DNA of 64,000 bases from an uncultured cyanobacterium (GTDB taxonomy: Bacteria > Cyanobacteriota > Cyanobacteriia > Cyanobacteriales > Cyanobacteriaceae): NCBI GenBank assembly GCA_963710605.1, contig CAVQBA010000007.1, positions 480,001-544,000 on the forward strand, read 5' to 3'. The stretch's first letter is position 1; each line of letters begins with the position of its first letter. The notes beneath the pieces are model-generated. The model had not been told where the DNA came from and made no database searches. It was given only the letters and a program-made list of their open reading frames with translations. Position numbers and translations under genes: made by a program. Below are positions 17,156 through 21,577 of the stretch, one piece after another.

Positions 17156-17186
17156 TCCCCCTTACAAAGGGGGATTTAGGGGGATT
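17156..17186. repeat. REP-like GC-rich palindrome (CCCCCTT..AAGGGGGATTTAGGGGGAT family)
   Basis: Related copies near 15257, 17994, 31800, 41081, 59454 and 61380. Confidence 0.75.
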
Positions 17187-17353
17187 AATCTGTATCTTAT
17201 GAAACTGAGAATTGCTATAACTAACAATTGATAATCTTCTTACCGAAAGTAAACCTATAAATGAAGGGTAGCTTGTCTGTAGTTTTTATCTCAAACATAT
17301 TAAAAAAAGGCATTAATGAATTAATTTTTCACTAATACCTTTTTTGTTGATTA

Positions 17354-17740
17354 TGGAGCTGAGCAGAGTTGAACTGCTGTCCAAACCAGCTATTTACTTA
17401 TCGATCGTTCACAGGTTTAGCCTATCTAATCCTCAGGCGGGAACTATCACTTATCCCTGACAGTGGGATTTTCTCGTATTATCTTAATTTAAAAACTGAC
17501 AAGAAGCAGTCGTTAAAAGCATCCGTTATTTATTGCCTATAGTACTTAACGGAGTCACACTATAAGCGCTCGAACCAATTTTTTAGGTCTTAGGCTGCTA
17601 CTGGAGCTGCTTTACGAGCAAAAGGAACTATGTTGTTCGCAGTTACAATTTTTTTGAATCTTTGATTAATGAGAGGAGATTCACTCTCAACCTGTATCAC
17701 GGGTCAGCTTTCACAAGCCTGTCGAAACCTTTACAGCCCC
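17354..17740 (-). ncRNA. ssrA: tmRNA
   Basis: 5' GGGGCTGTAAAGGTTTCGAC, 3' GTTCAACTCTGCTCAGCTCCA; tag ORF (A)NNIVPFARKAAPVAA* at 17590-17640. Confidence 0.97.
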
Positions 17741-17844
17741 TTGTTTTCCCTTTCGGTATTTACCATCATAACTTATAATTTATTAGTTGACAACCCCCAA
17801 TCATGAGTAAGGAGTAAGGAGTAACAAGTAATGAGTAAGAAGTT

Positions 17845-19356
17845 TTAATTGTCCATTGTCAATTGTCGATCGTTCACTGCTGGATGTGCCTCCAATACAA
17901 ACTCGATCGGCTGAAGCCGGCGCTGCGCGATCGTCGAAGTGGGCTGTGCCGTAAGGAGATTTGAGGGGAATTGCCCGTCGAGATAAGTAGAAGAATCCCC
18001 CCTAGCCCCCCTTTGTAAGGGGGGAACAAGATCGTGGTCGTGGTTGTCAGTATGAGGTATCAGGGTATGATAAGTGTCTGTTTTTGTATTTTGAATTGCA
18101 TTGAGTATTAAGACGTTGATATCGGAAGGAAGTTTACGGATACCAGGGGCTATATGGTTCTTTAATAAGTCATAGGGGTGAGCTTGTTGGTCTAAATGTG
18201 AACCATCGTCCGAGAGGAAGGCAGTAAAGTTATCACCGACAAAGGTACGTCTGCCATTTTGATAACGAACATTTTTATCGAATTCTGAATAACCGTTGAT
18301 GAAGCCATAAAGGTGGGCAGTTTCATGGAGGATGGTGGTAAGCAGATCGTATTTACCATAGGCTTCTGAGTCAGGAGTTGCCAAAAATGCGAACTCCGAA
18401 TTCCGAATTGCGAACTCCAAATTCTCCATAGGAGTAGCGTCGATAAACCAGCCAACACCGTTAGCATCGTGGTCAATGGAGACGATACCAGCATTGGGTT
18501 TACCCTCTGAGTCAAAACCTGTGATAGTGGCTTCTGCTAGTTGTCCAGAGGGAAGATCTTTTATTTCATAGGTGATGTCGATGTTGGTTTGAGGTAAAAG
18601 GGTTGACCAGATATGGTTTACGCTATTATTGAGTTGGTTAATAGTTTGGAGATTTGAATTATGGATATCACTGCTGAGGAGTTGCTCAGAAGGTATAATG
18701 CTGGAGAAAGGGATTTCACTAATATATGTTTGCGTAGAATCAATCTTATCGATGTTGATTTGAGTGAGATTAATTTGAGTGGTGCTAGATTGGATAATAC
18801 TTGTTTGACCAGAGTAAATCTCGACCGATCTATTTTTGTTAATGTCTTTTTGGAAACCACTTTCTTTGATGAAGTTAGTTTGGAGAGAGCTAATTTGAGC
18901 GGGGTCAATTTGTACGGTTCTAGAATGAGACGGGTTAATCTCAAAAGGAGTAACTTGGAAAATATTATCTGGTATGAATCTTGGCTGGAAGATGTCGATC
19001 TTCGAGAGTCCAATCTGCGTGGTGCTGACATGGGAGAGATTTATCTTGTTGATTGCAACTTTCTTGGAGCTAGGATGGAGGAAATATCCTTTCTGCCTAT
19101 GAGAGAGAGAGTTATCATGCCAGACGGAACTATCATAACTGATGATTGGATTTTTACTAGTTAAATTCTCACCATACTGTGCATTTGTTTCTATTATTGA
19201 AAAATCGGCTAGAAGGTTAGAAGTCAATGGGGAACAAGAGACATGATTTTCATCTTCAATGATATTTTGAATTTCTTTTGGAAGATGAGAAAAGAAATTG
19301 TTACTTGTTAATTCTTCTAAATAGAGCTCGCTTGTAGGGTGCGTTCTATTAAACCG
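17845..19356 (-). CDS. Fragment of a large secreted-type protein: antisense pentapeptide-like variable region followed by an HExxH metallopeptidase-like domain (probably truncated)
   Basis: Frame open from 19356 to 17845 (ORF track start is TTG at 19227); DLPSGQLAEATITGFD...IDHDANGVGWFIDATP...YDLLTTILHETAHLYG. Confidence 0.65.
   Translation of the reverse strand, partial: RFNRTHPTSELYLEELTSNNFFSHLPKEIQNIIEDENHVSCSPLTSNLLADFSIIETNAQYGENLTSKNPIISYDSSVWHDNSLSHRQKGYFLHPSSKKVAINKINLSHVSTTQIGLSKIDIFQPRFIPDNIFQVTPFEINPSHSRTVQIDPAQISSLQTNFIKESGFQKDINKNRSVEIYSGQTSIIQSSTTQINLTQINIDKIDSTQTYISEIPFSSIIPSEQLLSSDIHNSNLQTINQLNNSVNHIWSTLLPQTNIDITYEIKDLPSGQLAEATITGFDSEGKPNAGIVSIDHDANGVGWFIDATPMENLEFAIRNSEFAFLATPDSEAYGKYDLLTTILHETAHLYGFINGYSEFDKNVRYQNGRRTFVGDNFTAFLSDDGSHLDQQAHPYDLLKNHIAPGIRKLPSDINVLILNAIQNTKTDTYHTLIPHTDNHDHDLVPPLQRGARGDSSTYLDGQFPSNLLTAQPTSTIAQRRLQPIEFVLEAHPAVNDRQLTMDN
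17904..17933. repeat. 24-nt insertion flanked by duplicated CGATCG (same family as the folC copy)
   Basis: Reverse complement CGATCG-CGCAGCGCCGGCTTCAGC-CGATCG. Confidence 0.7.
18661..19164 (+). CDS. Pentapeptide-repeat protein, copy 1 (nested antisense in the ORF at 17845-19356)
   Basis: ITAEELLRRYNAGERDF N-cap, INLSGARLD/ANLSGVNLY/SNLRGADM repeats, IMPDGTI C-terminal motif. Confidence 0.88.
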   Translation: MDITAEELLRRYNAGERDFTNICLRRINLIDVDLSEINLSGARLDNTCLTRVNLDRSIFVNVFLETTFFDEVSLERANLSGVNLYGSRMRRVNLKRSNLENIIWYESWLEDVDLRESNLRGADMGEIYLVDCNFLGARMEEISFLPMRERVIMPDGTIITDDWIFTS

Positions 19357-19527
19357 TTACATATTTAAGACCATCCCATATAATATAGAACGCACCACCC
19401 TTATTTATTCATTAACGATTTTTTGAGGTATTTGTGGTATGTTATTTAATTCCCAATCAGACGGATAAATTCCTCGAGCAATAAAGCACTAAGATATACG
19501 ATACATAAAATAAAAGCGAAACCCAAC
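19328..19527. repeat. About 200-bp direct repeat B (second copy 20290-20506) containing a REP-type GTAGGGTGCGTT...AACGCACC element
   Basis: Near-identical over the first ~130 bp and again over the final ACGATACATAAAAT.AAAGCGAAACCCAAC. Confidence 0.85.
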
Positions 19528-20307
19528 TGTATTGGTTATGGAGTATTCATTATTATCTAATGGTGTATCGTCGATAAACCAGCCGACACCGTTAGCATTG
19601 TGGTCAATGGAGACTATACCTGCGTTAGGTTTACCGAAAGAGTCAAACCCTGTGATAGTTGCTTCTGCTAGTTGTCTTGTTGGTAAGTCTTTTATTTCAT
19701 AGGTGATGTCAATGTCGGTTTGAGGTAAGAGGGTTGACCAGATATTGTTTACGCTATTATTTAGTTGGTTAAGTGTTTAGATCTTTTTTGAATTATGCCA
19801 AAAAGAAGGAAAATTACTGCTGATGAATTGATTCGACAATATAATAGGGGGAACAGAGATTTCCGTCGGATTCGTATATGGGATTGGAGAAATGATGTTT
19901 TCAATGGTGTCGATCTTAGGGGTATTAATCTTGAAGATACTTTTATCGATATCAATCTAAGTGGTGCTATTTTGAGAAATGCTAATTTCAAAAATTCTAT
20001 CTGGGTTAGTGGAGACTGGCAAAATATTGATTTTACTGATTCCAATATGATCGGTGTTTCCAATGTGGATAGTTTCATCTTTACCCGTTGCGATTTTAGT
20101 GGAACTGTTTGGAGTAACGTCAAATTTTTTCAGTCTACTTTCGTTGACTGCAATTTGAGCTTCACTGATTTTGATAACGCCAGTCTTGTCGAAGTTGATC
20201 TTTACGGTTGAATTGTTTGTATTAATTAATGTAATATTATTTGCTTGAGATAATTTTAATGGTTGAGCTAATATATTAGTGCGATCGTATCGCTTGTAGG
20301 GTGCGTT
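19528..20307 (-). pseudogene. Second, decayed copy of the metallopeptidase-associated host ORF
   Basis: IWSTLLPQTDIDITYEIKDLPTRQLAEATITGFDSFGKPNAGIVSIDHNANGVGWFIDDTP is nearly identical to copy 1; in-frame stops at 19777-19779 and 19957-19959; truncated before HExxH. Confidence 0.8.
19795..20211 (+). CDS. Pentapeptide-repeat protein, copy 2 (divergent)
   Basis: ITADELIRQYNRGNRDF N-cap; VDLRGINLE/INLSGAILRNANFK repeats. Confidence 0.85.
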   Translation: MPKRRKITADELIRQYNRGNRDFRRIRIWDWRNDVFNGVDLRGINLEDTFIDINLSGAILRNANFKNSIWVSGDWQNIDFTDSNMIGVSNVDSFIFTRCDFSGTVWSNVKFFQSTFVDCNLSFTDFDNASLVEVDLYG

Positions 20308-20506
20308 CTATTAAACCGTTACATATTTAAGACCATCCCATATCATATAAAACGCACCACCCTTATTTATTAACTAACGATTTCTTGAGGTATTTGTGGT
20401 ATGTTATCTAATCCCCAATTAGTGAGATAGAAGATATTGTAGGGAACGGTTAAGCCTCGCAAAGATTAATATACACACGATACATAAAATGAAAGCGAAA
20501 CCCAAC
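20290..20506. repeat. Direct repeat B, second copy
   Basis: Aligns by eye with 19328-19527. Confidence 0.85.
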
Positions 20507-20551
20507 AACCGACTATCTACTAGCTCGTAATGAGAATCGGGAATATAACGA

Positions 20552-21577
20552 TTAATTCTCTGTCGTCCATCGATCGAGAATATCATTAAAAAGTACTTCT
20601 TCAACTATTGTTTTAAAAACTACTGTCAACGGAAGTGCCAACAGCAAACCAAGTAAGCCAAAGGTACTCGCAAAAAAGATTTGGGCAAAAAGAGTAACCG
20701 CTGGTAATAAAGACACTTTTTCTTCCATTACTCTAGGTGTTAACCAATAACTTTCGATATTTTGAATAATAAAGTATAAGACAAAAATAGGTAGTATTTT
20801 CCAAGGATAATCAACTATCGCAATCATAATCGGGAAAACAATGCTGAGTGTCGGACCAATATTAGGGATAAAATTTAATAATCCTGCTAAAAGTGCATGA
20901 ACTAAAACAAACTTTACTTGTAATGCGAACAAACCGACACCGCTTAATAAACCAATGAAGAGCGAATTAATTACTGTTCCATTAAACCAACTAACGATCG
21001 CAATTTCACTTTTATCTAATATATTATCAATTCGATACCGATAAAAAGCAGGAAATAATTGTCGAAAATAATGACGATATTTCTGAGGATTAAGTAAAAA
21101 CATAATACTCAAAATTAAAATAAATATTCCTTGAAAAAGGATCACTAATACATTAGAAAAAAAAGTAATAAAATTATTCAATAAATTATCAGGAATAAAA
21201 TTATAATCTTCGATCGAAATATCTAATTCTTGGATGAATTTAAAATATTTATATCGATCGTAATCAAAGTTATTAATTAAATAATTTATTCTTTCAGGAA
21301 AATTTTGAAAAACATTTAATAATAATTGAAACTGTTCAATAAATGGAGGTAAAATAACTAAAAATAGTAAATTAAAAATAATAGTTATAAGAATGATGAT
21401 GATGACAATCGCAGTAGAACGAGTTAAATAAAATTGATTTAGTTTTATAACAAGACGGTTAAGAGCTACAGCTATAATAATAGCCAAGAAAATTAACAAC
21501 AAAAGTTGACGTATTTCCCATAAAATATAAAGAGAAATTAAAAAACTAAGAAATCCTAAAGATTGACCAAAATTCAT
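20552..21577 (-). CDS. AI-2E (PerM) family transporter
   Basis: Multi-TM; LAGLLNFIPNIGP, IQNIESYWLTPRVM, GLLGLLLALPL. Confidence 0.9.
   Translation of the reverse strand: MNFGQSLGFLSFLISLYILWEIRQLLLLIFLAIIIAVALNRLVIKLNQFYLTRSTAIVIIIILITIIFNLLFLVILPPFIEQFQLLLNVFQNFPERINYLINNFDYDRYKYFKFIQELDISIEDYNFIPDNLLNNFITFFSNVLVILFQGIFILILSIMFLLNPQKYRHYFRQLFPAFYRYRIDNILDKSEIAIVSWFNGTVINSLFIGLLSGVGLFALQVKFVLVHALLAGLLNFIPNIGPTLSIVFPIMIAIVDYPWKILPIFVLYFIIQNIESYWLTPRVMEEKVSLLPAVTLFAQIFFASTFGLLGLLLALPLTVVFKTIVEEVLFNDILDRWTTEN

Follow-up and report, generated by a model that had tools for sequence, protein, structure and literature searches.

Polymorphic toxin systems such as Rhs and contact-dependent inhibition (CDI) include orphan modules, and in them a variable C-terminal toxin domain is followed by its cognate immunity gene. 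Pentapeptide-repeat proteins (PRPs) of solved structure, such as Qnr, MfpA and AlbG, are DNA mimics. Genes embedded antisense in another gene are described, in the portions of the reports available, for olg1/olg2 of Pseudomonas aeruginosa (PMC8850804) and for pop, laoB and ano of E. coli O157:H7 (PMC7103648, PMC5810103, PMC5960689, PMC9927249). The accessible part of a further report places YjbI-like pentapeptide genes next to GH-E His-Me finger nuclease toxins of Rhs systems (PMC5714182). Here we analyse a 64,000-nucleotide (nt) stretch of DNA, the window (contig C7, positions 480001-544000), from an uncultured cyanobacterium with a 3.93-Mb assembly (genome G000; 33% G+C, 7 contigs, 85% complete). 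It holds two tandem modules, each with a PRP gene, and one strand of the first belongs to a larger host gene running in the opposite direction. One stretch of DNA seems, from its frames, to be read in both directions. With a probability of roughly 0.78, we read the array as an eroded relic of PRP modules nested antisense in giant secreted-protein genes, in which the PRP is selected, the host linker is kept free of stops, cassettes have been reassorted by recombination and the PRPs work alone. The features are as follows, in window coordinates.

17782-20564, no strand assigned: whole segment, host-gene remnant plus two modules, without counterpart in a related organism
17845-19356, minus strand: host-gene remnant, 503 stop-free codons, in the order NUC1 tail, 'SQI' linker, HExxH domain
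17968-18660, minus strand: HExxH domain, zincin-like, with HETAH at 18313-18327; model residues 188-382
18421-18660, no strand assigned: flank A copy 1 (A); read on the minus strand, the opening ~78 codons of the HExxH domain, and read on the plus strand, the upstream region of PRP1
18661-19164, plus strand: PRP1, 167 amino acids (aa); Pfam PF00805, E 3e-23, 81.4 bits (cut-off 20.2)
19252-19329, minus strand: C-terminal relic of NUC1 (Endonuclease_NS), 'ELYLEELTSNNFFSHLPKEIQNIIED'; likeness seen by eye, unscored
19328-19467, no strand assigned: flank B part 1 (B1) copy 1, a 12-bp inverted repeat GGTGCGTTCTAT...ATAGAACGCACC plus about 70 nt
19489-19794, no strand assigned: flank A copy 2 (A'), highly similar over 19552-19786; a fragment of the HExxH domain
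19498-19527, no strand assigned: flank B part 2 copy 1, the right-hand half of a dispersed repeat, a palindrome of ~75 nt
19795-20211, plus strand: PRP2, 138 aa; Pfam PF00805, E 1.8e-14, 53.4 bits (cut-off 20.2)
20290-20429, no strand assigned: B1 copy 2, 92% identical to copy 1
20435-20506, no strand assigned: palindromic dispersed repeat copy 2, the whole element with a variant left arm GTAGGGAACGGTT

PRP1 is nested antisense and codon-aligned in the host linker. TTA, CTA and TCA are the codons that are read as stops on a codon-aligned opposite strand, and PRP1 contains none of them. The opposing host open reading frame (ORF), 17845-19227 on the minus strand, encodes 460 aa from a TTG start at 19227, and its triplets are in register with those of PRP1. 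Given the amino-acid content and the codon usage of the genome, the chance of zero antisense-stop codons in PRP1 is about 10^-11.3; the chance that the host frame over PRP1 is likewise without antisense stops, which keeps PRP1 open, is about 10^-6.4. These values exclude chance as the source of the PRP1/host overlap. The protein collection holds the 460-aa host ORF (P0001) as a called protein and lacks PRP1.

PRP1 was modelled as a right-handed quadrilateral beta-helix (predicted local distance difference test score, pLDDT, 93.2; predicted template-modelling score, pTM, 0.86). A Foldseek search with this model returned HetL (3du1, E 5e-11) and Rfr23 (2o6w, template-modelling score 0.76, root-mean-square deviation 1.5), and also 2j8k. 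The NCBIfam HetL and Alr5209 models align from the PRP N-terminus with scores far under their cut-offs, so the PRPs are not HetL or Qnr equivalogs.

The host ORF was modelled as well. Residues 188-382, the HExxH domain, have pLDDT values of 85-96, and residues 1-187 have values of 30-36 and no secondary structure. The host segment across the PRP is predicted by the model to be disordered; it is a read-through linker and not a selected exported domain. Foldseek matches to the HExxH domain were weak (leishmanolysin at E 1.1e-3, catalytic domains of matrix metalloproteinases weaker still); it matched no Pfam family and no PDB sequence, and NCBIfam NF038122 merely at E 0.004. The 460-aa ORF has 163 homologs, and the best 120 of the 163 are mostly cyanobacterial proteins of the 'large repetitive', immunoglobulin (Ig)-like, cadherin, PKD and NUC1-endonuclease kinds. 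Crocosphaera, Chamaesiphon and Xenococcus strains are among the named organisms that carry one. In an alignment of 67 host homologs H301, E302 and H305 are nearly invariant. So is H189, the antisense of the PRP1 ATG. Because the PRP start codon is a near-invariant host histidine directly before the conserved domain, the constant and the variable parts meet at the ATG. All 8 homolog sequences examined contain the HExxH domain together with a motif such as KV(S/T)(F/L)PSSIxxQQFFSSH, and 7 of these 8 have a five-residue S-Q-I-G-x repeat directly before the domain. By the genetic code, the repeat is the codon-aligned mirror of A(D/N)LXX and the longer motif mirrors EELLxRYxxGERDF of the PRPs.

The nesting recurs in other cyanobacteria. 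The host domain was found in 6 of 400 other genomes sampled from the phylum, in open frames of up to 8,564, 4,970 and 10,437 codons. At 7 of the 8 loci in these six genomes a complete PRP ORF, running from M..EELLxRYxxGERDF to TIMPDGS and a stop, lies antisense in the linker. These ORFs have zero internal stops and many stops outside them, and they sit in one open host frame between NUC1 nuclease and HExxH domains. The eighth locus is a distant match without a nested PRP. The giant frame of genome G125 has two NUC1 domains, and no more than about 100 nt separate each from the nested PRP that follows it; further matches of the protein are to He_PIG, Big_9, cadherin, PKD, dockerin, RHS_repeat and DUF6531. 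Nested PRPs are found at loci L066, L067 and L069 too, in three more genomes that are kin of one of the six. L067 (G420:C41, 96-1559) has three complete tandem PRP ORFs, stop to stop, on one strand, and a single host frame of 845 codons spans all three before its HExxH domain. Thirteen foreign nested PRPs from 8 genomes contain 1 antisense-stop codon, against 132 expected from the codon usage of the giant genes. In two genera the nested PRPs are repeatedly preceded by a GGAG or GAGG, about 9 nt before the ATG, and by a 'TGACCAGAT..CGCTATTATT' block.

The family is also large within the genome of the window. Flank A has 22 genome matches and flank B 36; further tandem arrays lie at C6:258308-260211 and C6:565196-566785. 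Modules occur on 6 of the 7 contigs, and the dispersed repeat terminates most of them. Flank A stops at scattered points on its distal side, and arrays differ in what follows the dispersed repeat. A jackhmmer search of all genome ORFs of at least 80 codons yielded 51 PRP ORFs. In this genome TTA and CTA make up 59% and 9% of leucine codons and TCA 18% of serine codons (1,084 long ORFs), and the ordinary PRPs have TTA, CTA or TCA at 8-16% of their codons. The fair count takes PRP ORFs by their position within 150 nt of a flank-A match; 17 of 18 such ORFs carry 0-2 of these codons. This scarcity keeps the codon-aligned antisense frame open. The third-position G+C content (GC3) is 0.32 in module PRPs and 0.23 in the genome. 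Within the genome, a regular expression for the N-terminal motif matched 12 of the 23 low-stop PRPs and none of the 28 ordinary ones. The nested type is thus a distinct PRP subfamily, marked by an N-terminal helix motif of its own and by TIMPDG at the C-terminus. PRP ORFs remain intact where the host frame is broken.

Selection was measured on two other PRP pairs, since the protein collection offers no close relative of PRP1; it has 3 matches to PRP1 at E ≤ 1e-10, the best 37% identical. One pair is the C6 tandem pair, both members of which are orphans. Over 166 codons its differences fall 14/14/37 at PRP positions 1/2/3, and the change is synonymous for the PRP in 22 of the 51 altered codons and for the host in 4. 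The other pair, G125/G425, lies inside intact giant frames of congeneric genomes. Over 218 codons the differences number 21/16/55 at the three PRP positions; of the 71 altered codons, 42 keep the PRP amino acid and 6 keep that of the host. The concentration of substitutions at PRP third positions indicates that the PRP protein is under purifying selection, with the host segment free to change save for stops. Purifying selection on both proteins was not found in these two pairs; the host frame shows stop avoidance alone. Despite the erosion of the giant genes, PRP ORFs persist in this genome, and selection continues on at least one pair.

Flank A evolves differently. A and A' were compared in register across a one-codon shift in copy 2, and their 73 codons differ by 16 synonymous and 9 non-synonymous changes, distributed 8/2/20 over the host positions. 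Three full paralogs of the flank A domain show a like pattern. The excess of synonymous changes shows that A' belonged to a functioning host gene during most of its past and that its truncation is recent. Third positions differ by 27% between A and A'. The congeneric PRP pair comes close to this, at 25%, with 87% identity between its proteins.

The module structure was as the sequence-only reading had described it: flank A, a PRP gene and flank B occur twice. The repeat finder aligned 18421-18655 with 19552-19786 (D1, 235 nt, 85%), 19328-19467 with 20290-20429 (D2, 140 nt, 92%) and 19498-19527 with 20477-20506 (D5, 30 nt, 97%). In a genome search with flank A, copy 2 matched copy 1 at 87% over about 220 nt. 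The two PRP genes are very divergent, as claimed, being 28% identical in the family alignment, and PRP2 was correctly described as intact with one antisense-stop codon, a CTA. The claim that similarity ends at the ATG was right in placing a boundary near the PRP start and wrong in making it a sharp edge. In 30-nt windows, copy-to-copy identity is 77-93% up to about 18650, falls to 60-67% over the first 60 nt of the PRP, which encode its conserved N-terminal motif, and is at background after that. Similarity returns from 19328, 164 nt past the PRP1 stop and 79 nt past the PRP2 stop. The two stops reported for the host frame in copy 2, at 19777 and 19957, were found; they split it into 19489-19776, 19777-19956 and 19957-20307 and cut it off before HExxH. 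Only the first ~75 domain codons remain in this frame, without HExxH. The open piece 19489-19776 has 95 codons, ended before HExxH by the dispersed repeat and bounded by the stop at 19777.

The three parts of a module differ in age. With about 28% protein identity between PRP1 and PRP2, 27% third-position divergence in A and about 8% divergence between the flank B copies, the cassettes are very old, A is intermediate and B is young. Flank B consists of a young hairpin element joined to the palindromic dispersed repeat. All 6 B1 matches in the genome adjoin modules. The dispersed repeat (GTAGGTTGGGTT ... AAACCCAAC, a palindrome of ~75 nt) has 31 genome copies at 6 or fewer mismatches, many of them far from modules. 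It forms a stem, GTTGGGTT/AACCCAAC, with an AT-rich loop, and a GCGATCG-like site often precedes it. Neither B1 nor the dispersed repeat matched an Rfam family. Both were considered as structured RNAs or terminators and rejected (z-scores of -0.6 to -2.2; one weak terminator-like site at 20286-20305). An array of integron attC sites was likewise considered. Such sites consist of an inverse core RYYYAAC and a core GTTRRRY and stand beside an integrase. The palindromic repeat reads GTTGGGT...ACCCAAC, the reverse order, and occurs away from cassettes as well, so this candidate was dropped; no integrase search was made.

Cassettes and flanks also have discordant histories, as the sequence-only reading had proposed should be checked; the comparisons use BLAST-based identities. 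PRPs of this genome are 31-50% identical to their best paralog (exceptions: the C6 pair at 81%, and one at 52% over only 40 residues), and module PRPs are equally distant from paralogs and from PRPs of other genera. For one of them the identity is 61% with a G420 PRP and only 32% with its best paralog. Flank A is always nearest within the genome (75-93%, against 67-74% for foreign sequences; two short foreign matches of 29 and 50 nt reach 82-90%). Within the genus to which G125 belongs, at least 8 matches show DNA similarity to the host beginning at one fixed place, about 55 nt inside the PRP. G425:C5 matches unit 1 of G125 in its nuclease and PRP (86.6%) and unit 2 from the HExxH domain onward (77.2%), and the only overlap between these matches is a stretch of 89 nt containing the PRP start. 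The alignments in another genus agree with the earlier placement: a boundary near the PRP start in at least 8 matches and a junction within 89 nt that include the ATG. We infer from these alignments that recombination probably took place in the conserved block at the PRP 5' end, and recombination there would account for the different ages of the three parts.

The host gene is truncated at both ends in the window. On its 5' side the frame extends upstream to 19356 and retains 'LEELTSNNFFSHLPKEIQNIIED', which resembles by eye the end of the nuclease domain, before B1 copy 1 cuts in and truncates it. The NUC1 relic was compared by eye with 'LERLTDYNFFSNIPAEIQKAIED' of P0009 and with '...IEALTGYNFFSKLPNDTQKQLE' of the genome's own nuclease. 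Past 'RGARGDSS', after a palindromic element, the frame diverges from the paralog P0002. The cut by B1 on one side and the departure from P0002 on the other make the window copy a remnant truncated at both ends. Parts of the HExxH domain are found at five loci of the genome, the longest open frame of the family being 817 codons; since the genome is 85% complete, a full-length host copy could be unassembled. The full-length giant gene that the sequence-only reading looked for exists in other cyanobacteria (4,970 to 10,437 codons) and is absent from this assembly (longest 817). Locus L060 (G000:C5:276186-276791) is the genome's only NUC1 nuclease, a stand-alone lipoprotein-like gene of 253 aa. 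A convergent 118-aa ORF overlaps its stop and might be a nuclease inhibitor.

The whole segment is missing from a related organism, as shown by one metagenome contig (run X2, 857 nt, depth 60) that bridges 17781 to 20565 via 94 other letters, its arms being 17347-17781 and 20565-20894. Either an insertion here or a deletion there fits this joint. Other joints in metagenome contigs (18369-19556, 18664-19906, 19692-18618 and 20510-18655) were set aside: they are single contigs with 80% likeness and short sides, perhaps paralogs from other organisms. A permease-like gene ends at 20552, and a transfer-messenger RNA (tmRNA) gene lies on the other side of the segment. This ssrA gene (17354-17740, minus strand; Rfam E 2.7e-44; ARAGORN tag peptide ANNIVPFARKAAPVAA) is 41 nt from the left border, and the segment is on the gene's 5' side. 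Genomic islands usually integrate at the 3' end of a tmRNA gene. Heptamer repeats of the GAGTAAG type lie at 17806-17843, just within the left border, and similar runs adjoin several copies of the dispersed repeat elsewhere in the genome. A palindromic dispersed element rich in C5/G5 has two arms here, 17157-17191 and 17989-18023. The second arm is in frame within the host ORF and encodes 'VPPLQRGARGD', an insert present in paralog P0002 and, as a variant, at the equal position in P0027 of another cyanobacterium. Short matches to the element are dispersed in the relatives G002, G004 and G005. At the right border, an ORF of 61 codons (20419-20604, minus strand) overlaps the 3' end of the permease-like gene. 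Its hydrophobic 'LGFAFILCIV' is the dispersed repeat read in one frame; other copies of the repeat read differently, which makes this ORF probably spurious.

The mechanism we propose is as follows. A host ribosome would traverse the PRP's mirror image and translate it as a flexible linker, in a frame that the exclusion of TTA, CTA and TCA from the PRP codons keeps free of stops. The PRP would be expressed from signals within flank A, a ribosome-binding site and probably a promoter. A GGAG lies upstream of PRP1 at 18648-18651, and a candidate promoter was read by eye as TTGACC at 18603-18608, 15 nt, and TATTAT at 18624-18629. Recombination at the conserved PRP start would, in the course of evolution, reassort cassettes and host domains. 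The array in the window would be a relic of longer genes or of a multi-unit gene, invaded later by B1 and the dispersed repeat. The PRPs would act independently of the host, their likeliest role being that of a DNA-mimic inhibitor of the adjoining nuclease type. This last is the least secure step.

Several observations weigh against this explanation. PRP2 lacks the C-terminal TIMPDG motif of the family and its upstream GGAG is altered; judged from these features, PRP2 may be decaying. The promoter scan did not report the proposed TTGACC/TATTAT pair, whose spacer is 15 nt. One flank-A neighbour, C6:115698, has 10 antisense-stop codons. The 23 low-stop modules contain 10 such codons against 301 expected, a descriptive figure only, the group having been picked by the feature counted. 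Every host gene in this genome is truncated, and orphan PRPs may owe their lack of TTA to an earlier nested state. The case for selection on the host frame draws on stop avoidance and on the flanking in-frame domains, not on amino-acid conservation. The proposed recombination junction comes from one comparison of two congeneric genomes, which paralogy could mimic. The flank A domain is under purifying selection, so that much of the similarity in A needs no recombination.

The nuclease inhibitor proposed above is a guess by analogy, drawn from the adjacency of NUC1, the DNA-mimic nature of solved PRPs and the linkage of YjbI-like PRPs to His-Me nucleases. Taken further, it would make the nested PRP a built-in antidote, a DNA-mimic beta-helix that blocks the adjoining NUC1 domain within the producer cell. 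Written backwards in the linker of the toxin, the antidote could not be separated from the weapon by recombination, and the two messages would be mutually antisense; orphan arrays would be a repertoire of antidotes retained against the nucleases of neighbours after the weapon had decayed. We hold this extension to be doubtful, though worth stating. A different objection is that the PRP ORFs might be non-functional shadows of a host 'SQIxx' repeat on the real coding strand. Gene callers did pick the host ORF (P0001 is in the protein collection and PRP1 is absent), and the antisense of S-Q-I-G-x is A/T-N/D-L-x-x by the code alone. Nevertheless PRP third positions take 37 of the 65 differences in one pair and 55 of the 92 in the other, and most of the substitutions alter the host amino acid; PRP ORFs in many genomes span from an ATG at the N-terminal motif to a stop past the C-terminal motif; a Shine-Dalgarno-like site is conserved; a confident beta-helix model stands against a disordered host segment; and PRP ORFs are intact where the host frame is broken. 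Shadow ORFs are accordingly hardly credible. The same holds for an ordinary old tandem duplication with uniform divergence, or for a host frame left open incidentally by the codon usage of acquired PRPs, with no read-through of a linker. The units are adjacent with their parts in equal order, and the GC3 of 0.32 in module PRPs against 0.23 in the genome would suit acquired genes. Divergence is uneven, however (the cassette proteins are 28% identical, whereas the DNA is 85% identical in A and 92% identical in B), and there are at least 18 copies. In place of the two copies of uniform divergence that would have signified simple duplication, 22 matches to flank A were found, and cassette, A and B diverge unequally. 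Incidental openness is opposed by the 1 stop against 132 expected in 13 PRPs from 8 genomes of different composition, and by the nuclease and HExxH domains that lie in one frame on either side in those genomes.

Two further alternatives treat the modules as mobile or as still being exchanged. The modules might be passengers of a mobile element or island, the 2.8-kb segment having been inserted and the family spread by transposition or by capture through repeats (the dispersed repeat, B1), with two units adjacent because they were inserted side by side. The relative without the whole segment between the tmRNA and permease genes is consistent with this, as is the distribution of the host domain, which was found in 0 of the 30 nearest relatives at E ≤ 1e-10, a same-genus genome having only a degraded fragment. 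Modules spread over 6 of 7 contigs and mostly ending in the dispersed repeat, and a young flank B, about 8% diverged, point the same way. On the other hand, the border sequence, in which no systematic search was made, showed no transposase, integrase or target-site duplication; the dispersed repeat occurs far from modules as well; flank A ends distally at scattered points, and arrays are not alike past the repeat; and the cassettes are too divergent for a recent burst of copying. We consider passenger status unlikely. Active cassette switching, in which orphans recombine through flank A with an expressed host and so change both the exported domain and its antisense partner, was the suggestion of the sequence-only reading, and it is quite improbable. 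It draws on arrays of truncated modules 5' of a fuller copy, here and in G420, on the 87% identity of A and A' over about 220 nt, on a boundary fixed near the ATG in another genus with one recombinant junction there, and on the RHS_repeat and DUF6531 matches of the G125 host. The host here has no intact 5' end, however, B1 standing in place of the nuclease domain, and its 3' end is cut too. Its supposed variable domain evolves without amino-acid constraint and is predicted to be disordered, and A and A' differ at 27% of third positions, hence were not homogenised recently. Neither a recombinase nor a variant junction was identified, the joints in metagenome contigs being ambiguous matches to paralogs. 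The earlier likeness to orphan-module arrays therefore holds for the many copies and the shared block; an intact main gene in the genome and ongoing switching fell away, and programmed switching is unsupported because the host genes here are eroded. The idea that one swap would change an exported variable domain fails, as that segment is unselected (4 of 51 and 6 of 71 changes synonymous) and disordered; with the host gene cut at both ends, a swap would not rebuild an exported protein. Exchange permitted by conserved flanks keeps its junction at the PRP start, and loses the flanks themselves: A is similar mainly as a conserved coding domain and B is a dispersed repeat. The count of flank A copies proposed at the same time gave 22 matches, not two.

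If our explanation of a PRP nested in, and outliving, a giant gene is correct, it provides an unusually clean natural example of two-strand coding, in which a gene of 400-650 nt from a well-known family lies fully inside another frame. The nesting is conserved across cyanobacterial families, and its signature tells the selected frame from the frame opened by codon choice. Because gene callers keep one strand only, this PRP subfamily, and perhaps other nested genes, may be systematically missed. Through the nesting, the large and unexplained number of pentapeptide proteins in cyanobacteria is tied to giant exoproteins that bear nucleases. It also shows a nested gene outliving its host, with orphans under purifying selection while the giant genes erode. 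Were the antidote idea true, part of the cyanobacterial pentapeptide proteins would be immunity genes hidden from annotation.

Among known systems, HetL, Rfr23, Np275/276, Qnr, MfpA and AlbG share with PRP1 the PF00805 family and the beta-helix (3du1, 2o6w, 2j8k). Unlike them, the nested PRPs have their own N-terminal and TIMPDG motifs and are written antisense in a host frame. Polymorphic toxins resemble the PRP hosts in being giant secreted multi-domain nuclease proteins, with RHS_repeat and DUF6531 in the G125 host, and resemble the modules in having truncated arrays with a homology block of a fuller copy and one small gene per variable part. They differ in that the PRP gene is antisense inside the big gene and not downstream of it, and the variable part is a linker and not a toxin domain. 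Moreover, PRP orphans lie 5' of the fuller copy, this genome has no intact main gene, and immunity by PRPs is a guess. The YjbI-like genes, in the part of the report available (PMC5714182), are like the PRPs in their tight linkage to a secreted His-Me finger nuclease with no immunity gene annotated. They concern another nuclease group and neighbouring, not nested, genes, and that part does not show their function either.

The closest parallels are the embedded antisense genes olg1/olg2, pop, laoB and ano. As far as the available text of those reports goes, they share with the nested PRPs a long ORF wholly inside and antisense to another coding frame, the loss of one of the two to gene callers, and evidence from conservation and selection. 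To the same extent, the PRP case differs in that an old, structurally solved family is the selected frame and the outer frame is merely an open linker. The pairing recurs across several cyanobacterial families, with up to three PRPs in tandem per host, and it persists as multi-copy orphan modules. A literature search, with subscription journals and supplementary files outside it, found no paper joining pentapeptide repeats with antisense, nested or overlapping coding. Antisense embedded genes as such are already known from E. coli and Pseudomonas.

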